Source: Deltaproteobacteria bacterium (GTDB taxonomy: Bacteria > Desulfobacterota > GWC2-55-46 > UBA9637). From it: a DNA stretch of 64,000 nucleotides. Where the stretch lies: the NCBI GenBank assembly GCA_016214995.1, contig JACRML010000027.1, forward strand, positions 1,766 to 65,765, given 5' to 3'. Positions 33,400-59,737 of the stretch are shown piece by piece (positions within the stretch are counted from its first letter, which is position 1; each line of letters opens with the position of its first letter). The notes under the pieces are model-generated. The model was not told the origin of the DNA, ran no database searches, and saw only the letters and a list, made by a program, of their open reading frames with translations. A program made the translations under genes and the position numbers.

Positions 33400-33583
33400 C
33401 CTTCTCCCCTTGCTCCTCTTTGCTTTCTTGCTCAACCTCTACAGAATATTTTCCATCTGCCCATTTGCCCAGGTCAATAAGACTGCATCTTTCTGAACAG
33501 AATGGCCTGAAAGCATTCTCTTGCCATCCGGTTTCCTTGCCGCATACAGGGCATTTAATCTTTGTATTCATCATTTTGTGCAT
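33389..33583 (-). CDS. yacG: DNA gyrase inhibitor YacG (zinc finger)
   Basis: [33 protein letters not shown], the canonical YacG C4 motif followed by an acidic tail. Confidence 0.8.
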
Positions 33584-34920
33584 CAAAAATCAAGCGGACT
33601 TTTCACCTCTTTGACGGTCTGGCTCTTAATCGTATGAGTATATATCATGGTCGTCCTTACATCGCTGTGTCCCAGCATCTCCTGAATAGTGCGAATATCG
33701 TAATTGGCCTGCAAGAGATGCGTTGCAAAACTGTGGCGAAAGGTGTGTGACGACACCCTCTTCAATATCTTTGTCTTCCTCACAGCCCGCCGTATCGCCT
33801 TATTCACATGGGTTTCATGGAGATGATACCTCCTGTATTTGCCCTCATCGGGGACAAGGGTTAATGTCTTGGCCGGAAAGAACCACTGCCAGATCAACTC
33901 CCTCCCGATATTCTTATACTTCTTTTCAAGAAGTCCGTCAACAAACGCTCCCGCATAACCGGCATCGAGGTCTTTTTTATGCAGTTCCGTCACATCGGAG
34001 AGATGCTTCCTGATATCCGGAATGATAGACCTTGGAAGCGGCACAGTCCTGTCTTTCTTCCCCTTCCCGTCATGCACCGTCAATACCCCTGCATCCAAAT
34101 TAAAATTGTGCAGCCTGAGCTTCATGCACTCAAACAACCGGAGGCCGCAACCGTACAAAAGCCTGACCACAAGGTCATAAGGATAATTGAGGTTGGCTAT
34201 CACAGAATCCACTTCCTCCCGAGACAGCACAACAGGTATATATCTGGTTCGCCTGGCCCTCACATTATCGCTCTGGTCTCCGAAATCGGTCTTTAATACA
34301 TGCCTGTACAAAAACAAGAGTGCGTTAAAAGCCTGGTTTTGGGAAGAAGCTGATACGCGGCATTGCACAGCCAGAAAGCGTATGAACTCCTTTACATCGG
34401 ATGGATTCAAGTCAGAAGGTTTCTTGCTTTTTATAAAGGCTTGAAACTTTCTCACCCATGTAGAATATGATCTCAATGTCTTAGGGGAATAATGCCTTAC
34501 CTTAATCTCCGCAAACAGGTCTGAGTATGCCTTCTGCCAATCATACTCTATGCTCCCCTCCTTTTTAATATTCCTCTCGCCCATCATGAGTGAGGGGACT
34601 GTCCCAGATTTACCGGCGGAGTGACACGGAGCGGTAGAATTGGGACTGTCCCCGGCTTTGCTATCTTCCAGCATCTCATAATAAATAGCCACCGCCCTCG
34701 CCGCCTCCTCCTGCATCACAGTAGATTGATTCTTCTCATGCAATTTGATCATGAAGTGCTTAAGGGATTCCCTGTCAGCATACCTGTGACAGTATTTATG
34801 ACAGAAATCAAGATAGTACCTCAACCACTTCTTGTAGTTATTATGAAGGGAATTTGAAACCGATTTTTTATTCAGCAAGAGACTATATTTAGTAAATAAA
34901 GCAGCAGGGATATTTAGCAT
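33583..34920 (-). CDS. intI: Integron integrase (IntI-type tyrosine recombinase)
   Basis: Catalytic R (GCGLRLFE), [10 protein letters not shown] and MIYTH. IntI-specific extra segment [40 protein letters not shown] and C-terminal [13 protein letters not shown]...SPLD. An alternative start at M112 (34587) gives the usual ~334 aa. Confidence 0.85.
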
Positions 34921-53861: not shown

Positions 53862-54551
53862 TTAAATAGTTGCTGAAACAATCCCTTCAAAAATCTTTTT
53901 TCCGTTCTCCCCTCCAAGAATAGATTCGCACACCCTTTCAGGATGCGGCATAGTACCGAAGACATTCCCAGTTTTATTGATGATGGCTGCAATATTATTG
54001 ACGGAGCCGTTCGGGTTGGCATCTTCTGTGATTTTGCCGTCTTTGTCAGAATATCTGAATATTACCTGATTATTATCCTCTAATCTTTTAATAGTATCTT
54101 GATCTGCAAAATAGTTTCCATCCGCATGGGCAATGGGAATGTTAAGCACCTGATTTTTTTGATACGTCTTTGTAAAGGCGGTCCGGTTGTTCTCTATCCT
54201 TATATGAACATTTTTGCAGATAAATTTGAGCGTCTTGTTTCTCATCAAAACACCAGGCAAAAGCCCTGCTTCGGTCAATATCTGAAAACCATTGCATATA
54301 CCGATAACAAGGCCGCCATTTTTTGCAAATGCGGCTACCTCTTGCATAACCGGTGAGAATCTGGCAATGGCGCCGGTCCTTAAATAGTCGCCGTATGAAA
54401 ATCCGCCAGGGATGATAACACAGCCAAATCCCTTGAGACTTGTCTCCTTATGCCAGATGTATTCTGCCTTTTGATCAAAGATATGCTTTACAGCATGGTA
54501 GCAATCATGGTCGCAGTTGGAACCTGGAAATACTATGATGCCGAATTTCAT
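53862..54551 (-). CDS. purQ: Phosphoribosylformylglycinamidine synthase, glutaminase subunit
   Basis: GATase triad context GICNGFQIL and MPHPER. Confidence 0.92.
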
Positions 54552-54787
54552 TCTATCTCCACCTTATAGTCTTCAACAACAGTATTCGCCAAAAGTTTTT
54601 CGCACATCTCTTTAAGCCGTTTATCTGCATCTTTTTGAGATACGCCGTCAATCTCTATTTCTATAAACTTGCCTATGCGCAATCCTTTGACTTCTTTATA
54701 TCCCATAGATTCCAGCGCCCCGCATACAGCCTTTCCCTGCGGGTCAAGAACTCCTTTTTTCAATGTTACATAAACTTTTGCCTTCAT
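54548..54787 (-). CDS. purS: Phosphoribosylformylglycinamidine synthase subunit PurS
   Basis: [21 protein letters not shown]..., 79 aa. ATG 54787; overlaps purQ by 4 nt. Confidence 0.9.
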
Positions 54788-55221
54788 TTGTTTTCTCCCT
54801 GCAACAAAATTTCTTTGACCTTGCGATGTATATCTTCCAGCAGCGGACGGCTTACGCTGATAAATGTCTTGATGGAGTTCCACCGTATATCAAGATAATC
54901 ATGGGCTACGATATTTCTCAAGACCGCCCATGTCTCTATCTTTTTGCCGAAGTCTTCATGGAAATATCTTGCTCCGAAAGCAAACAACACTTCTTTATAT
55001 GTTTGAGGCATGGGAAAGTCTTCACCGGCAAGAAGAAGCTTGGCCATATCAATAGTTGAATTGACAAGATTTTCAATCCACCGCTCAAGATTTCTGCGTT
55101 TGTCTTTGTCGAACTGATAATCGTTCCATGAATACTCCGCAAATTTCCAAAAATCCGCCAATTCACCGGCAAAAAAATCCAGATGTCTTGCAAGCCGCTC
55201 TCTTTCTCTATTCGCCGGCAT
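54784..55221 (-). CDS. hepT: HepT-like (DUF86/HEPN) toxin
   Basis: RNIVAHDY (Rx4HxY) motif. Its stop overlaps the purS start by 4 nt. Confidence 0.85.
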   Translation of the reverse strand: MPANRERERLARHLDFFAGELADFWKFAEYSWNDYQFDKDKRRNLERWIENLVNSTIDMAKLLLAGEDFPMPQTYKEVLFAFGARYFHEDFGKKIETWAVLRNIVAHDYLDIRWNSIKTFISVSRPLLEDIHRKVKEILLQGENK

Positions 55222-55639
55222 GAGTCCTTATCTCCTCTTTCAGCTTCCAATAGCTTATGACAAATTCCCTGAAATCCTCGGCTTCGGCTGTAACCCTCAT
55301 CATAAAATCAACATACAACCCCCTGTCCTTTATCACAAGAGGCGCACCGCTTATAGCGCTCTCGGCAACGCTCGATGCCGCCCTGTTGAGAACCAACAGG
55401 TCAACCTCTTTGCCTAAAAGCCCCTCTATCTCACGCCATAAAACAGTTTCCCCATCATATCTTGCGTCGCTATCTTCCCATTCCAGTCGTGATGTTTTCG
55501 GTTTGAAATAAACCGCTATATCAACATCCGAATCCATCCCGCCTTTACCTTTTGCCCATGAACCGAAGAGAAAGGCCATAACAATATCGTCCCTCTTTTC
55601 AAAATATGGCTGTAAAAGTGTTATCATTTCATTCTTCAT
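55208..55639 (-). CDS. mntA: MntA-like nucleotidyltransferase antitoxin
   Basis: FLFGSWAKG...DSDVDIAV (GSx10DxD) minimal NTase motif. Confidence 0.85.
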   Translation of the reverse strand: MKNEMITLLQPYFEKRDDIVMAFLFGSWAKGKGGMDSDVDIAVYFKPKTSRLEWEDSDARYDGETVLWREIEGLLGKEVDLLVLNRAASSVAESAISGAPLVIKDRGLYVDFMMRVTAEAEDFREFVISYWKLKEEIRTHAGE

Positions 55640-55733
55640 AAACTACCTTCCCTGCCACAATCGTCTTCACAACCCGTCCCTTCATCTTCCATCCGTCAAA
55701 CGGCGTATTCCTGCTCTTTGATTTTAACTTTTT
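55629..55733 (-). pseudogene. Orphan 3'-terminal fragment of a dihydroorotase gene (duplicate of the pyrC end)
   Basis: Reads [34 protein letters not shown], versus [34 protein letters not shown] at the pyrC C-terminus. 31 nt are identical (55634-55664 = 58441-58471). Confidence 0.75.
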
Positions 55734-55737
55734 GGAT

Positions 55738-55799
55738 AATTCTGGGGACACCATACTGAACTGAACTCTCCCTGAATTGAGTAAGGTGTCCCCGGAATT
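55738..55799. repeat. 15-bp imperfect inverted repeat at the islet edge
   Basis: AATTCTGGGGACACC (55738-55752) ... GGTGTCCCCGGAATT (55785-55799), 32-nt loop. Confidence 0.7.
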
Positions 55800-55811
55800 C
55801 CTGAATCTTTA

Positions 55812-55940
55812 TTAATATCCAGCACCATCTACAGCGCAAACTGTGCAACCTTTTGATTCATCATATTTTGAAACATTGGCAGAACTCACAAGAATGTTTA
55901 CCTCTTTGCTTATCTCCTGTTCAGTTTTTTCAACTTCCAT
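55812..55940 (-). CDS. Candidate RiPP precursor peptide (42 aa)
   Basis: Not in ORF track. GGAAAGGAGGTG-N6-ATG, 26 nt downstream of the radical SAM gene: MEVEKTEQEISKEVNILVSSANVSKYDESKGCTVCAVDGAGY, followed by tandem stops. Confidence 0.55.
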   Translation of the reverse strand: MEVEKTEQEISKEVNILVSSANVSKYDESKGCTVCAVDGAGY

Positions 55941-55966
55941 GTATATCACCTCCTTTCCGTTATAGA

Positions 55967-57217
55967 TCAATTACTCACAACCAAGTCATACATCTTTTTA
56001 GTTTCCAAACACTTTAGCTCCAATGTGCTGTCTTTTTTATAAACCTCCTTGTAATAAGGACAAGTATGACATAATGGAAGACAATTGCATTTTTTACATT
56101 CAGCATCTAATGCAAGAGTTTCTTTTCTATATTCATTTAATTTTTGAAATTGATCCTTAAAAGGCACTTCATGTCTATAATCCACATATTTTTCTCTAAA
56201 CATAACACAAAAATGAATTTTAAAATCTAAAGAGATAAAACACTCTGATATTCCGACATTACAAAAATGTTCACCTTTATCTATCAATTCTTTTCTAAAC
56301 TCTTTTTCACTATCAAATATTTTTTTTAGATTTATTATCTTCTTCTCTGAAAAAATAAATTTGTCTAAACATTCTGGCTCAATTTCATGCTCCTTAGGTG
56401 CGCTATTTCCATCTAATGTATGTGCCATCACAGGATTAATATTGTGTTGGCTATTCATTTTATTACAGAAACGTCTCATGGCATTGAGGCTTGAATAATT
56501 TTCCTTTAATAAAACTGTCTGAATTACAAAGTTGAGATTATTTCTTGATAAAGCATCTATGCCATTTAAAAACTTATTATAATTATTTGCACTTCCTGTA
56601 ATTTGAATATATTCTTCTTCGGAAGAACCATACTGACTGACTTTTATCATCTTTGGGGGGTATTTATTGAAAGTGGCAACAACTTTAGGAATAAATGAGC
56701 CATTTGTTACAATGGAGACCACAAAACCTTTTCTTTTTGCATAAGTATAAATATCTATGAAATCTTTTCTTAAAGTGCATTCGCCGCCAGTAAACCAAAG
56801 AAATAAGACACCACTATCACATAAGTTGTCCAAAAGGTTTATTAATGAATCAAATGAAGGCTCTTTTTTCCCTTGCAGCGGTTTAGCATAGCAATGAATG
56901 CAATCAAAATTACATTGACCCGTAAGTTCAATTCCAACTTTCCATGGGTAAATATCATTTGAATTTGGCTTTGATAGATTCCTTTTGTTGGTGAAATTAG
57001 CTTTATCATTTATTTTCAGAAATTCTTCAAAGATTTGTTGAACTATATTATCCGGTATGGAAGCCTTATGGTTAAGTGTGCATTTTATGTCGCTCTCCAA
57101 AATTATCGCATTTTCATTACAGTATGAAATCTGCGGGTCTATCAACCACATTTTCCCCGCAATATTTCTGATTACTATTCTGTCCCAATATGCAATAAAC
57201 TCTTTTGAATATTTCAT
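55967..57217 (-). CDS. Radical SAM / SPASM-domain peptide-modifying enzyme
   Basis: CNFDCIHC (CX3CX2C). C-terminal auxiliary-cluster cysteines CNVGISEC ... CKKCNCLPLCHTC ... C. ~95-aa N-terminal extension. Confidence 0.88.
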   Translation of the reverse strand: MKYSKEFIAYWDRIVIRNIAGKMWLIDPQISYCNENAIILESDIKCTLNHKASIPDNIVQQIFEEFLKINDKANFTNKRNLSKPNSNDIYPWKVGIELTGQCNFDCIHCYAKPLQGKKEPSFDSLINLLDNLCDSGVLFLWFTGGECTLRKDFIDIYTYAKRKGFVVSIVTNGSFIPKVVATFNKYPPKMIKVSQYGSSEEEYIQITGSANNYNKFLNGIDALSRNNLNFVIQTVLLKENYSSLNAMRRFCNKMNSQHNINPVMAHTLDGNSAPKEHEIEPECLDKFIFSEKKIINLKKIFDSEKEFRKELIDKGEHFCNVGISECFISLDFKIHFCVMFREKYVDYRHEVPFKDQFQKLNEYRKETLALDAECKKCNCLPLCHTCPYYKEVYKKDSTLELKCLETKKMYDLVVSN

Positions 57218-57293
57218 ACTTATTGATTTTTCCTGAATGAAAACATATGAATGAAAACATAAAGAAACATAAATAGAAACAAAGGGGACAGAT

Positions 57294-57524
57294 TTATTTA
57301 AGCATTGCTTCGAAATCTTTGGGTCTTATAATTTTTGTATTATGGAATGAATCTAATACAAGAATATCCTCATCTCCTGTAATAAGATAATCGGCTTTCC
57401 CTTCCAATGCCACTCCAAGCAAAAAGTTATCTTTCTTATCCCTGCAAACATCAACCTTTTCACTTGGCAAAACTACTATTGCATAGCTGTCAAGAAGCGA
57501 AAAGAGTTCTTTGATTCTTTTCAT
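57294..57524 (-). pseudogene. PIN-domain toxin remnant (C-terminal half only)
   Basis: VCRDKKDNFLLGVALEGKADYLITGDEDILVL aligns with the C-half of the PIN protein at 22064..22498. The N-terminal ~65 aa, including the first acidic residue, are absent, with a stop 9 codons upstream. Confidence 0.55.
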
Positions 57525-57744
57525 ATCGCCTTTGCCTGACAGATTCTACCTCCCCGGTAATCTCCTCTATTGTTATAGGATATTTTCGGGCAGACTCCCT
57601 GAACTCTTTCAGAAGGCTTTTAAACCTCGCTGCAAATAGCTCTTTTTCCAGCATCGTCAACACCTCTATCTTTTTTGCCAATGGCAAACTCTTAACTGCC
57701 TTTTTAATTTCATTTAAACCTGAATCTGAAATTGTTTTTAGCAT
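57490..57744 (-). CDS. Putative antitoxin-like small protein (partner of the decayed PIN)
   Basis: GAAGGAGG-N7-ATG, 84 aa helical protein. Position and overlap with the PIN remnant are the only evidence. Confidence 0.4.
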   Translation of the reverse strand: MLKTISDSGLNEIKKAVKSLPLAKKIEVLTMLEKELFAARFKSLLKEFRESARKYPITIEEITGEVESVRQRRYEKNQRTLFAS

Positions 57745-57979
57745 AACAACACCTCCTTCAAATCATGGCAGTAATATTCAATATTGCCGTATATACCTTT
57801 TGATTTAATGCTAACAAAATCACCGGAGAGAGTAAAGTTTTTTGATATTGTGATATCCTTTCAAAAATAAATCTGATCCCCTTTATCCTTTAGATTCCTA
57901 TACGGTGCGCCTTTTAGGTCAACTGCCTTTGCCCTATCTTTTGTGAGATTTGCCCTTGGTATCCGTTTTTCCACAAGCC

Positions 57980-58234
57980 CTACTTCAACACCGTCTCCCC
58001 GGAAAAAACCGGGACAGGGATATACCGTGAAGGCTTTTTTTTCTGATACCTTTTAATAAATCTGTCGATTTTTGAAGAGACATCGGCGCTGAAGTATTTT
58101 TCACCGCACTGTTTGCATATATCTGCAGGCAGGTCTTCACAGATTATCAGTTCTTTTTGGATGTGAACCTCCAAATCTATTTTTTTATGCTCCAATTCCC
58201 CGCCGCATAGGTCGCAAAGGTCTTTCTCCTTCAT
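57980..58234 (-). CDS. YgiT-type (MqsA N-terminal-like) zinc-finger protein
   Basis: CDLCGG ... x ... CKQCGEKYF, two CxxC pairs with the typical spacing. ATG 58234. Confidence 0.7.
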   Translation of the reverse strand: MKEKDLCDLCGGELEHKKIDLEVHIQKELIICEDLPADICKQCGEKYFSADVSSKIDRFIKRYQKKKPSRYIPVPVFSGETVLK

Positions 58235-58282
58235 CTTGGCTCCATTGTCCCAATAGAACACCCTATTGATTTATATAGACTC

Positions 58283-58392
58283 GTAGGGTGGGCTGTGCCC
58301 ACCGCAAACATTGTCCTTTGTAATGGTGGGCGCAGCCCACCCTACCATTTTCATCCCCCTTTGTGCCTGCCTGTGCGTTGCACGCAGACAGG
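58283..58392. repeat. REP-like palindromes
   Basis: GTAGGGTGGGCTGTGCCCACC ... GGTGGGCGCAGCCCACCCTAC (58283-58345), and cctgcctgtgcgt tgc acgcagacagg (58366-58392). Confidence 0.65.
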
Positions 58393-58435
58393 AGCCAAAG
58401 GCTCGTGAGGGTTTACTCCGAAATGCTTTGTATTT

Positions 58436-59737
58436 TTATCCTTCATAAACTACCTTCCCTGCCACAATCGTTTTTGAAGCCATTCCCTTCATCCTCCATC
58501 CATTAAACGGAGTGTTTTTGCTTTTGGATTTTAATTTTTTAACATCAACAACCCATTCCATATTCAAATCAACAATTGTTATATCAGCATCTTTACCATT
58601 TGCAAGAGAGCCTTTTGTAGAAAGTCCTAAAATCTTTGCGGGGTTCGCAGAGAGTTTTTCAACAAGGGTGTTTAATGAGACAACCCCTTCGTCAACAAGT
58701 CTCAAAGATAGAGGTAGCGCTGTTTCAAGACCAATTATCCCGTTTGCTGCCTTATCAAACTCAACATCCTTTTCATCAATATTTTGAGGAGCATGGTCTG
58801 TTGCTATCGCATCTATGGTTCCGTCTTTAAGCCCAATCTTTATCGCATCAATATCGGTTTTGGCTCTAAGCGGAGGATTCATCTTGGCATTGGTATTATA
58901 ACCCATAACAGCCTCGTCTGTTAAAGTAAAATGATGCGGCGCAGCCTCTGCTGAAATATTTAATAACCCCCTTTGTTTTGCGTTTCTTACAAGTTCGACG
59001 GCCCCCTTCGTGCTGATATGGGCGATATGCAATCTCCCTCCCGTAAGCTCGGCCAGCGCAATATCCCTCGCAACCATAATATCTTCTTTGGCATTTGGAA
59101 TGCCTCTGAGCCCCAGTTTTGTTGATATAAAACCCTCGTTCATTACGCCGTCCGGCGCAAGCCCGGTATCCTCACAGTGGCTTATAATTAGAAAATTAAA
59201 AAGTTTTGCATATTCCATGGCCAATCTCATAAAGCCGCTGTTCACAATGGGTCTTCCGTCATCTGACAACGCAACGCATCCCGAATCTTTTAACTCCCCT
59301 ATCTCTGCAAGCGTCTCTCCTTTCAATTCTTTGCTTATTGCGCCCACAGGAAATACATTCACAGCGCCTTCTTCCGCAGCTTTTTTAAGTATATACCTTG
59401 CGACAGAGGCATTGTCGTTTACAGGGTTTGTATTTGCCATACATGCAATTGACGTGAATCCTCCGGCTGCGGCTGCCATTGTGCCTGTCTTTATCGTTTC
59501 TTTATATTCGTAGCCAGGCTCCCGCAAGTGCGTGTGCATGTCAATAAATCCTGAACAGACAATTAGGCCGGTTGCATCTATGATATTCCAGCCATCAGAC
59601 TGGGAATCTGGGGCTGGAGTAGAAAGATTCGGTTTTACAGCGGCAATTTTCCCGCCGACTGCATACACATCAAACAGACCGTCGATGCCGCTTGCAGGGT
59701 CAATCACCCTTCCGCCTTTGATCAAGAGCCTATTCAC
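58436..59737 (-). CDS. pyrC: Dihydroorotase
   Basis: [10 protein letters not shown] metal motif and DHAP near the C-terminus. 433 aa. Confidence 0.93.

Follow-up and report, generated by a model that had tools for sequence, protein, structure and literature searches.

ICESt1/ICESt3 and CIMEs in fda, and SCC and pseudo-SCC in rlmH/orfX, insert into the 3′ end of a gene and restore that gene, and recombinase-less derivatives are known. Chromosomal hotspots of horizontal transfer reportedly lie between conserved core genes, typically with defence and toxin-antitoxin genes (e.g. Oliveira et al. 2017). A further precedent is homology-facilitated illegitimate recombination (HFIR), which, according to the part of PMC6382021 that cites de Vries & Wackernagel (2002), Prudhomme (2002) and Meier & Wackernagel (2003), has been documented with joints of 3-10-bp microhomology in three transformable species, namely Acinetobacter baylyi, Streptococcus pneumoniae and Pseudomonas stutzeri.

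The locus described here lies behind pyrC in the window, by which we mean the whole 64,000-nt stretch of DNA that was analysed, and belongs to a MAG of 1.98 Mb (82% complete, 99 contigs; G000 in our comparisons). We compared it with 12 related genomes of the order, all of them MAGs and coded in the same way, and surveyed 96 class-level genomes for a second pyrC tail. On balance we lean towards the view that the pyrC 3′ flank is a gene-transfer hotspot, which the islet behind pyrC entered by one homologous crossover inside the gene and an illegitimate join. The features that bear on this reading are as follows.

58436–59737, minus strand: pyrC, dihydroorotase of 433 aa, intact but mosaic (Pfam Amidohydro_1/DHOase)
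58436–58700, minus strand: imported pyrC 3′ tract, ~260 nt (informative sites; sliding-window identities agree)
58436–58540, minus strand: tail copy B, foreign and G011-like, forming the final 35 codons of the pyrC in use (identity comparison)
58441–58471: copy B of the 31-nt identical core (exact; the genome has just one other)
55735/55736: putative illegitimate junction between cargo and displaced native pyrC tail (homology ends at 55735; crossed by contig L163)
55629–55735, minus strand: tail copy A, native and displaced, with the final 35 pyrC codons (a chimeric 41-codon ORF spans 55629–55754)
55634–55664: 31-nt identical core, copy A (holds the mntA ribosome-binding site and ATG)
54784–55639, minus strand: mntA (55208–55639) and hepT (54784–55221), resident type VII toxin-antitoxin pair (NCBIfam MntA_antitoxin, HepT_toxin)

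An earlier note on this DNA had reported that the last 35 codons of pyrC recur near 55629–55733 around a 31-nt identical block, and our searches bear this out. A repeat search of the window returned one direct repeat of 120 nt and 79% identity (55614–55733 and 58421–58540), and the last ~105 nt of pyrC (58436–58540) are found again at 55629–55735 with 82% identity (genome-wide blastn, E = 2e-23). The 31-mer CTTCATAAACTACCTTCCCTGCCACAATCGT is exact at 55634–55664 and 58441–58471, and outside it the copies are ~74% identical, close to the roughly 70% that had been noted. An identical run of 31 nt is unlikely by chance (simulated p = 0.002 at 74% and 0.03 at 82% background identity). A search for CTTCATAAACTACCTTCCCTGCCACAATCGT elsewhere in the 1.98-Mb, 82%-complete assembly, which the earlier note had proposed, yielded only the two known copies with up to 3 mismatches allowed, and no third copy of the pyrC tail occurs elsewhere in the assembled genome.

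Comparison with relatives identifies the DNA between the copies as an insertion downstream of pyrC, as had been claimed. In G001, G005 and G009 a single pyrC tail runs straight into mntA, so that the empty sites expected at this junction do exist, and the mntA start overlaps the pyrC stop in all three just as it overlaps the old pyrC stop here. Tail copy A is 94% identical to the tail of G009, 91% to that of G005 and 86% to that of G001. Taken together with mntA, it matches the closest relative, G001, at 91% identity, in line with 89% in the 5′ part of pyrC. Tail copy B is 96% identical to the tail of G011, which belongs to a different family, versus 77-79% to same-genus tails. The G011 identity runs past the stop codon: tail B and the downstream YgiT/MqsA-type antitoxin gene are 96-100% identical to G011, versus 75% for the rest of its pyrC. 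The working pyrC tail is thus foreign and the stranded copy beside mntA is native, in agreement with the proposal that the incoming DNA supplied a replacement terminus.

These identities also bear on an origin in place, either by in-situ duplication, be it tandem or a long target-site duplication, or through decay of a second pyrC paralogue. Two similar copies in direct orientation would fit such an origin. However, each copy is closer to another genome (96% and 94%) than to its partner (82%), so they were not derived from each other in place. Moreover, the pyrC homology of copy A ends at 55735 in every relative, with no pyrC similarity beyond, so copy A is a 35-codon fragment and not a piece of the longer degraded paralogue that the earlier note had named as an alternative. 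We regard an origin in place as scarcely credible.

The foreign sequence extends beyond the duplicated segment. In segment trees, the 5′ part of pyrC is sister to G001 (support 100/99), the segment from −310 to −106 relative to the stop places G000 inside another family, f2 (99/99), and the working tail is sister to G011 (100/100). Informative sites of genus type and family-f2 type stand at 27:3 before the breakpoint and 2:35 after it (Fisher p = 3e-13). The foreign tract begins at −268 to −257, ~155 nt upstream of the duplicated segment, which sets the homologous crossover at ~58692–58703. Sliding-window identities show that pyrC is visibly mosaic in several genomes of the group. Near-100% identity between G000 and G011 starts at ~−100, almost at the duplication boundary (−105). 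This proximity speaks against HFIR, being also predicted by a preferred exchange point; the onset may instead just mark where the most conserved block begins.

The earlier note had read the identical core with its diverged flanks as the pattern of site-specific integration. On this model the islet would be the remnant of a CIME-like element or decayed genomic island whose attP mimicked the pyrC 3′ end, which gave the gene a new terminus, and whose integrase was lost or acted in trans. Direct repeats with an exact 31-nt core do flank the cargo, and there are empty sites in relatives. The locus also resembles ICESt1/ICESt3, CIMEs and SCC in that the cargo sits right behind a housekeeping gene that is intact, with direct repeats of the gene end, and cargo arrays without their own recombinase occur among CIME/SCC-type elements. 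The tail of G011 is only 76% and 73% identical to the other tails of its own family, versus 83% between those, which fits a tail borne by cargo, and the proximity of the identity onset to the duplication boundary points the same way. In addition, four tyrosine recombinases are encoded in the genome, among them an integron integrase 21 kb away.

Nevertheless, we consider such an element unlikely. All 11 informative sites from −91 to −34 are of foreign type in the working copy, and the displaced copy is native throughout; the exchange was therefore not in the 31-nt core, and foreign sequence reaches 155 nt upstream of the repeat. CTTCATAAACTACCTTCCCTGCCACAATCGT is also present in the single pyrC tails of G009 and G011. 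It ends exactly where mntA and the DUF4258 toxin leader, two unrelated downstream genes, start to differ, past their shared ATGAAG start, so that conservation of a gene end, a ribosome-binding site and a start codon accounts for its identity better than an att core would. Known elements of this type carry exact, short att repeats at fixed positions, and their cognate recombinase is present in related elements, whereas at this locus the repeat measures 105 nt with 82% identity, the exchange lies outside the core and the boundary of a second event, in G004, differs. The islet itself contains no recombinase gene, as the earlier note stated; no integrase-like gene was found in the pyrC neighbourhoods of 11 relatives; and no pyrC-tail-like sequence adjoins any recombinase of this genome, the earlier note having proposed to look for the 31-mer next to integrases. 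G011, at 100% completeness, carries one pyrC tail only, and a second tail exists in just two of the 96 class-level genomes (this one and G004).

The G004 event, in a genome of the same genus, is independent, with the same architecture but another junction and other cargo (MazEF and a radical-SAM fragment). There the displaced native tail, 61 codons long, reads in frame into the truncated N-terminus of a methyltransferase, so that both the repeat length and the junction, which cuts a methyltransferase gene, differ from those found here. This separate assembly also speaks against the concern that our locus is a chimera of two strains or species, for which the shared 31-mer or another conserved stretch of pyrC would have served as the bridge in assembly. 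The genome is an incomplete MAG in many contigs, and the Logan contigs from run SRR12113397 are interrupted at the repeat. The Logan contig L071 stops 30 nt into the copy-A core, as expected for a branch in a k=31 graph. However, the independent contig L163 of run SRR12113397 is 100% identical to window positions 57318–55698, covering the radical-SAM gene, the peptide gene, the REP doublet, the junction and 38 nt of tail A. Since L163 spans the junction between cargo and tail, that junction was not created by the assembly of this MAG, and a truncated tail joined to this cargo really exists. Furthermore, tail A ceases to be pyrC at −105, which a join through shared sequence would not give, and the 31-nt repeat is shorter than normal reads. 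A chimera is therefore very improbable.

These comparisons show the insertion itself, the native or foreign nature of each tail, the breakpoint in pyrC, the separate G004 event and the lack of a recombinase nearby, whereas from them we infer the recombination pathway, the route by which the DNA entered and whether the cargo arrived in a single step. In the order of uncultured Thermodesulfobacteriota to which the genome belongs, the ancestor would have had the arrangement pyrC-mntA-hepT-purS. Incoming DNA from a relative in another family would have carried the last ~260 nt of the donor pyrC, followed by accessory genes. Its first end may have entered by homologous recombination inside pyrC at the mapped crossover, and its second end by an illegitimate join to the resident pyrC, 105 nt before the stop (55735/55736). 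Because the islet would have come with its own copy of the last 260 bases of pyrC, the original gene end was stranded downstream. pyrC would thereby have become mosaic yet stayed intact, and the resident last 35 codons would have become a fragment still bearing the mntA ribosome-binding site and start codon, with ~2.7 kb of cargo between the tail copies.

The overall pattern would be that of HFIR: homologous recombination within a shared gene anchors one foreign end, the other is joined with no extended homology, the element itself need not encode a recombinase, and resident DNA between the joints is replaced. There are also differences. Known HFIR is experimental, whereas the present case is deduced by genome comparison in an uncultured organism; the anchor here is diverged, and joint microhomology is unreadable without a known donor. 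The joint lies upstream of the resident gene end, so that the tail was duplicated instead of resident DNA being lost. Judged from present-day representatives, the homologous anchor is ~20% diverged, which is inefficient for RecA and speaks against HFIR. In looking for the donor arrangement, we found no other genome or contig with the 'MASK' tail, which likewise counts against this reading and against entry in a single step.

Another scheme has the insertion take two or more steps, or a Campbell-type single RecA crossover of a circle carrying a pyrC 3′ fragment and cargo. Such a crossover would naturally leave the cargo flanked by duplicates of the shared segment, with no need for a recombinase; the upstream f2-like tract would then stem from a separate gene conversion or recombination. 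Extra tracts are plausible, as pyrC is mosaic elsewhere in the group, and the islet is composite. However, copy A is native and copy B foreign from end to end, so the crossover would have to coincide exactly with the upstream border of the shared segment, and an extra independent event is needed for the tract from −257 to −106. These requirements make the scheme less parsimonious than one homologous and one illegitimate joint, and we think it rather improbable.

The islet between the tail copies, about 2.7-2.8 kb, holds toxin-antitoxin leftovers and a small peptide-modifying gene pair. Its content, described earlier as a RiPP-like pair, decayed toxin-antitoxin genes, REPs and an inverted repeat at the edge, is refined below.

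58413–58446, minus strand: leader mini-ORF remnant (16 codons) of a DUF4258 toxin/YgiT antitoxin module (Logan match)
58283–58345: REP doublet, inverted pair of GTAGGGTGGGCnnnGCCCACC (21-nt arms, 95% complementary)
57980–58234, minus strand: YgiT/MqsA-type zinc-finger antitoxin gene, orphaned, 84 aa (NCBIfam YgiT_finger, 7e-12)
57886–57979, minus strand: 3′ part of the imported toxin-antitoxin cassette, including orf37 (57861–57974) (homology to contig L152 down to 57886, to G011 down to 57915)
57277–57775, minus strand: decayed VapB (57490–57744) and PIN toxin C-terminal fragment (57294–57524) (NCBIfam VapB15, TIGR00305)
55967–57217, minus strand: radical-SAM enzyme, 416 aa, intact (Pfam Radical_SAM, 2e-20)
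55812–55940, minus strand: gene for a 42-aa peptide, partner of the radical-SAM gene (the pair recurs elsewhere)
55738–55799: REPIN-like hairpin formed by a REP doublet at the edge of the islet (23-nt arms, 87% complementary)

The leader ATG overlaps the last pyrC codons, and its 32-36-nt match sits directly upstream of DUF4258 genes (confirmed by Pfam) in Logan contigs L153-L156. The toxin body is missing both here and in G011. The YgiT-type gene has its ATG at 58234, in an open frame that reaches 58261; region 57915–58236 is 96% identical to G011 at the DNA level, and relatives at 95-98% identity are likewise 84 aa long and located after DUF4258 toxins. A REP doublet (58283–58345) occupies the place expected for the toxin gene and is missing from the equivalent position in G011; its unit, GTAGGGTGGGCnnnGCCCACC, has 34 copies in the genome and belongs to a family present in 12/12 genomes of the order. 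The inverted repeat at the islet edge folds at −29.6 kcal/mol (z = −4.5). It resembles REP/REPIN elements and their RAYT (IS200-like Y1) transposases in being an inverted doublet of a 20-23-nt unit, and in the sister genome G001 a Y1_Tnp (IS200-like) gene lies between inverted copies of the repeat's 20-mer, AATTCTGGGGACACCATACT; the repeat differs in its very low copy number (3 units in the genome).

The TIGR00305 match of the PIN fragment is limited to profile positions 61-115, and the VapB/PIN block has a paralogue in the same genome (C73:1155-1921, 92-96% identical), ~313 nt of which is missing in the islet. The radical-SAM gene is rare, with its nearest relative 68% identical, and has a GC content of 28-33% versus 42-48% in the flanks. 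Its product partially matches SPASM peptide maturases, and its C-terminal Cys cluster looks SPASM/twitch-like. The gene and its 42-aa peptide partner recur as a pair in unrelated contexts, with a conserved peptide C-terminus, SKGCTVC(A/G)VDG(A/K)GY. Given the in-genome VapBC paralogue and the very different GC content of the radical-SAM pair, both of which speak against a single import, the islet is probably not one import. The composite cargo comprises a DUF4258/YgiT module minus its toxin, a decayed VapBC pair, the AT-rich radical-SAM and peptide pair and two REP doublets, parts of which may have arrived or been remodelled in separate steps.

The flank has been busy in relatives as well, where at least six different things lie 3′ of pyrC: MntA(-HepT), DUF4258′-YgiT with IS110, MazEF, ParDE, AbiJ and carA. 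In G002, G006, G007 and G008, pyrC directly adjoins purS. The tail of G009 is 90-91% identical to tails of genus g1 and only 79% to those of its own genus, so the mntA module has also been exchanged along with a pyrC tail. Like chromosomal hotspots, the interval after pyrC thus holds varied toxin-antitoxin or abortive-infection cargo across related genomes, and flanking core-gene sequence is co-transferred, giving mosaic core genes. It differs from them in its very small size (0 to 2.8 kb), in having its cargo built into the pyr-pur transcription unit, and in keeping the scar that one-sided recombination left behind pyrC. The islet is an ordinary scar of horizontal transfer at a busy hotspot, and not a new kind of mobile element.

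In the window, a short second copy of the end of pyrC lies some distance downstream of the intact gene, and the stretch between the two copies (55736-58435, referred to below as the islet) is filled with foreign genes. All genes here are on the minus strand, in the order pyrR, pyrB, pyrC, islet, displaced pyrC tail (copy A), mntA-hepT, purS and purQ. We refer to the tail of the working pyrC gene (58436-58540) as copy B.

Features of the pyrC locus (positions in the window)
58436-59737, minus strand: pyrC
58413-58446, minus strand: remnant of a leader mini-ORF, 34 nt
58283-58345: REP doublet, following the mini-ORF remnant
start ATG at 58234, minus strand: gene for a YgiT/MqsA-type zinc-finger antitoxin, 84 aa
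57277-57775, minus strand: block with a VapB-like gene plus a PIN toxin reduced to its C-terminal third
55967-57217, minus strand: radical-SAM enzyme, 416 aa
55812-55940, minus strand: gene for a 42-aa peptide
55738-55799: hairpin, 62 nt
55629-55735, minus strand: pyrC tail fragment (copy A)

An Rfam scan of 55400-58700 gave only a sub-threshold match to an miRNA family, on the REP doublet, and database searches returned no exact record for the window's YgiT protein, pyrC or a 41-aa chimeric ORF.

The earlier note had claimed that the 3′ end of pyrC is duplicated around an exceptional 31-nt core, and on both points it was right. A repeat search of the window detected a direct repeat of 120 nt (55614-55733 and 58421-58540, 79% identity); over the last 105 nt of pyrC, copies A and B are 82% identical. 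When the islet was compared with the whole assembly using blastn, the pair scored E = 2e-23 and no third copy of the tail was found. The genome-wide search for the 31-mer that the note had suggested located it at 55634-55664 and 58441-58471, which are its sole two sites in the 1.98-Mb, 82%-complete genome, even at three mismatches. In simulations, a run of 31 identities is improbable given the identity elsewhere (p ~0.002-0.03), and the core thus stands out from the rest of the repeat. It spans conserved C-terminal codons, the ribosome-binding site and a start codon, and ends where two unrelated downstream genes diverge, past a common ATGAAG. The mntA start on copy A (ATGAAGAATGA) is in exactly the same register as the leader mini-ORF start on copy B, which explains why the identity ends at this point.

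Two simple explanations of the repeat were rejected: duplication in situ, since copies A and B are each closer to sequences elsewhere than to one another, and a longer pyrC paralogue, since copy A is a fragment of only 35 codons and the homology of the relatives' pyrC genes to it ends abruptly at 55735 in every case. That the arrangement is an artefact is scarcely credible, as two independent Logan contigs from run SRR12113397 agree perfectly with the window. One of them (L163) covers 57318-55698 and takes in the radical-SAM and peptide genes, the REP doublet, the junction and part of copy A. The other (L071) spans 54507-55663 and breaks off after 30 nt of the core, where a graph built with k=31 should branch.

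Of the other genomes of the order, 11 have a pyrC gene, and we compared its surroundings in these by tblastn and blastn. In four of these (G002, G006, G007 and G008), pyrC and purS adjoin directly. In three others (G001, G005 and G009), a pyrC gene with a single tail runs straight into mntA; these are the empty sites that had been predicted, and they support an insertion behind pyrC. Among 96 genomes of the class, two tails are present only in the source genome (G000) and in G004; G011, which is 100% complete, has one.

The two tails have different affinities. Copy A together with mntA is 91% identical to the closest relative, G001, about equal to the 89% of the pyrC 5′ part, and for its tail copy A shares 94% identity with G009 and 91% with G005. 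With tails of the same genus, copy B shares only 77-79% identity, as against 96% with the tail of G011, which belongs to a different family and has a pyrC otherwise ~75% identical to that of G000. This match runs past the stop codon and reappears, at 96%, across the antitoxin gene (57915-58236). The same picture emerges from maximum-likelihood trees of three pyrC segments: the 5′ part places G000 as sister to G001 (support 100/99), the segment from -310 to -106 (counted in nt from the pyrC stop) places it within family f2 (99/99), and in the tail tree copy B is sister to G011 (100/100), with copy A among tails of the genus and of the mntA type. Informative sites switch from the genus type to the family-f2 type between -268 and -257 (window ~58692-58703), with splits of 27:3 before and 2:35 after the breakpoint (Fisher p = 3e-13). 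The donor-type tract in pyrC, with 35/37 informative sites 3′ of the breakpoint of the f2 type, is contiguous with the foreign DNA. By these sequence comparisons, the tail of the working pyrC gene is the foreign one, which supports the earlier proposal that the incoming DNA supplied a replacement terminus.

The further suggestion that an element integrated site-specifically at the identical core is not supported, since the switch between native and foreign sequence lies outside the core. A decayed site-specific element would be in keeping with the empty sites in G001, G005 and G009. The direct repeats at the islet ends share the exact 31-mer, which G009 and G011 have as well, each in its only tail. 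Between -91 and -34, all informative sites of copy B are of the foreign type, whereas copy A is native over its whole length, so the exchange did not occur in the core; the foreign type holds for the working gene at the informative sites from -257 to -34, and foreign sequence in pyrC begins well upstream of the duplicated segment (-268/-257 versus -105). Nor is there a common insertion point, as the displaced tail comprises 35 codons in G000 versus 61 in G004. The islet, as the earlier note had observed, has no recombinase ORF in 55736-58435. All four tyrosine recombinases of G000 are away from the islet, and in tblastn searches they revealed no integrase-like sequence in the pyrC neighbourhoods of the 11 relatives; a serine recombinase is absent from the G000 genome. 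We thus consider a decayed element of this kind unlikely. The tyrosine recombinase nearest to the islet, 21 kb off, is an integron integrase (33583-34920; 445 aa, Phage_int_SAM_4 and Phage_integrase domains), and repeats near it begin with AAC and end with GTT, like attC sites.

The hairpin at the islet edge (-29.6 kcal/mol, z = -4.5, no T-tract) lies 2 nt from the joint between cargo and copy A. Its 23-nt arms are 87% complementary, forming two inverted REP units, and its 20-mer AATTCTGGGGACACCATACT is a low-copy sequence found in 8/12 genomes of the order, with three units in G000 and 0-2 in relatives. In G001, inverted copies flank a 224-aa ORF with a Pfam Y1_Tnp match (3.7e-14). Y1_Tnp is the type of IS200-like or REP-associated tyrosine transposases.

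Positions of AATTCTGGGGACACCATACT units
L162 (contig G001:C306), 1501-1520 and 2236-2255: inverted copies flanking the ORF
window, 55738-55799: edge hairpin
G000:C69:9872-9891: further unit

No cognate REP-associated transposase was found at high identity in G000, where the best match is 47%; this genome has ~10 diverged Y1-transposase paralogues versus three AATTCTGGGGACACCATACT units. An integron cassette was rejected as an explanation, as the hairpin is without R″ (RYYYAAC) and R′ (GTTRRRY) boxes, while G000's own integron repeats have AAC at their start and GTT at their end. The edge hairpin is best read as a REP doublet, and not as an element terminus or attC site. A second REP family, GTAGGGTGGGCnnnGCCCACC, often forms inverted doublets (e.g., window 58283-58345); G000 has 34 units of it, and the count per genome is 3-56 across all 12 genomes of the order, both families included. 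The REP family GTAGGGTGGGC...GCCCACC was dropped as a clock of residence time, being order-wide and uninformative.

The simplest single account, towards which we lean, is homology-facilitated illegitimate recombination, i.e., one-sided homologous recombination combined with an illegitimate join. Donor DNA bearing the terminal 260 nt of its own pyrC, together with cargo, would have been anchored in the resident pyrC by homologous recombination, and its far end would have been joined 105 nt ahead of the resident stop codon, replacing the resident stretch from -260 to -105 and stranding the resident tail. According to PMC6382021, this process is documented in three transformable species, with joints at 3-10-bp microhomologies. 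At the second joint of the islet, pyrC homology stops abruptly at 55735 beside the REP doublet. The boundary of identity to G011 (~-100) nearly coincides with the duplication boundary (-105), which gives a preferred exchange point some plausibility. Multi-step or Campbell-type routes to the same arrangement are, in our estimation, quite improbable. We looked for the donor and for further sequences with the foreign tail. A degenerate protein pattern of the tail had 0 matches in genome_contigs, a 26-mer of the core had 0 in metagenome_contigs, and a search of 5.8 billion proteins with the pyrC C-terminal region found the foreign tail only in G011; the donor was not among the matches.

An independent event was found in G004, which belongs to the same genus. 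The working pyrC there diverges in its 3′ third, and the displaced native tail of 61 codons, nearly identical to G005, still abuts purS. This tail has lost its stop codon and is fused in frame to an N-terminal methyltransferase fragment, the two truncated genes being joined at about AAAGG. The cargo comprises a MazF/antitoxin pair (putative antitoxin, 66 aa) and an N-terminal radical-SAM fragment (154 aa). As the boundary differs from that in G000 and cuts a gene, it fits illegitimate joining and not an integrase.

Second locus, in G004
L035 (contig G004:C21), 8531-10483: duplication locus
L035, 9587-9922: MazF toxin

The genes following pyrC are diverse in the order.

Genes found after pyrC
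purS: ancestral in family f1
carA: family f2 (G010 and contig L164)
MntA, with or without HepT
DUF4258′-YgiT and an IS110-family transposase: G011
MazEF and fragments: G004
ParDE: contig L165
AbiJ: G012

In G011, 1.1 kb separate the pyrC/YgiT junction from the IS110-family (DEDD) transposase gene downstream of it (L037, contig G011:C78, 3625-4674), after which the contig soon ends. The G009 tail is 90-91% identical to tails of genus g1, that of G000, but 79% to those of its own genus, so the mntA module also moved with a piece of pyrC. The full mntA-hepT pair is present in G000 and G009; behind pyrC in G001 (L033 1239-1672) and G005 (L034 2810-3238), mntA has no accompanying hepT match and appears to be an orphan antitoxin. 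These gene contexts flag the pyrC 3′ flank as a local hotspot for toxin-antitoxin and defence cargo. A bolder idea is that the conserved last ~100 nt of pyrC, especially the 31-nt block ending in ATGAAG, could be a portable docking handle borne by small cassettes of this kind, which would swap in and out behind pyrC without a recombinase of their own, via an unrecognised trans-acting site-specific enzyme or a dedicated short-homology pathway. We regard this as very unlikely; if true, it would be a cassette-exchange system that lacks a recombinase and is built into a biosynthetic operon.

In Logan contigs carrying close relatives (95-98% identical) of the window's antitoxin, a DUF4258 toxin gene lies upstream, itself preceded by a conserved mini-ORF of 16 codons (MKDRNTKHFG...). 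In the window and G011, the mini-ORF start (ATGAAGGATAAAAATACAAAGCATTTCGG) overlaps the last pyrC codons (TAT GAA GGA TAA) and the toxin body is absent, by a clean deletion in G011 and with ~175 nt including a REP doublet in its place in the window. The mini-ORF, MKDRNTKHFG(V/A)RYG(V/A)E, precedes and overlaps DUF4258 starts in several contexts (L153-L156; window 58413-58446; L037 2514-2561) and is possibly the leader peptide of a DUF4258/YgiT toxin-antitoxin module. The relatives' native pyrC genes end in TATGA(A/G)GGATA(A/G), a 12-nt match to the 5′ end of the DUF4258 cassette that could have served as microhomology at its first fusion to pyrC. The leader and the carA start of G010 are alike over ~18 nt only, which are absent in L164, making this a possible microhomology only. 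None of the YgiT/MqsA relatives in genome_contigs adjoins pyrC.

The islet is composite. The VapB/PIN block has a 92-96% identical paralogue at G000:C73:1155-1921, ~313 nt of deletion apart, which also looks disrupted. The radical-SAM pair has a GC content of 28-33% versus 42-48% around it. The enzyme and its 42-aa peptide are conserved as a pair in unrelated genomes (window 55812-57217; L064 6001-7405; L068 4629-6010), after a TIR-domain gene or a BPL_N gene, and the peptide's C-terminus, SKGCTVC(A/G)VDG(A/K)GY, is near-invariant. Enzymes of this family are rare: among 5.8 billion proteins, 9 are at least 39% identical. Just upstream of the enzyme's start codon is a 14-nt perfect tandem duplication (TGAATGAAAACATA twice, 57234-57261). 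A loose regex search with the inverted-repeat motif of 57281/57865 yielded mainly noise.

The event is of a known kind, an HGT hotspot with a recombination scar, of which this is a new example. Specialists in genome plasticity are unlikely to be surprised; the value lies mainly in a worked case and in the setting it gives to the radical-SAM/peptide pair of the islet. The locus also shows that short duplicated gene ends in metagenome-assembled genomes are not to be taken automatically for att sites. For uncultured Thermodesulfobacteriota, the locus is a natural case of accessory-gene entry into a compact genome, in which a housekeeping gene provides the homology for anchoring and keeps its function only through the replacement end brought by the incoming DNA, while its displaced native end is left as a datable scar, of which there are two independent examples in one genus.
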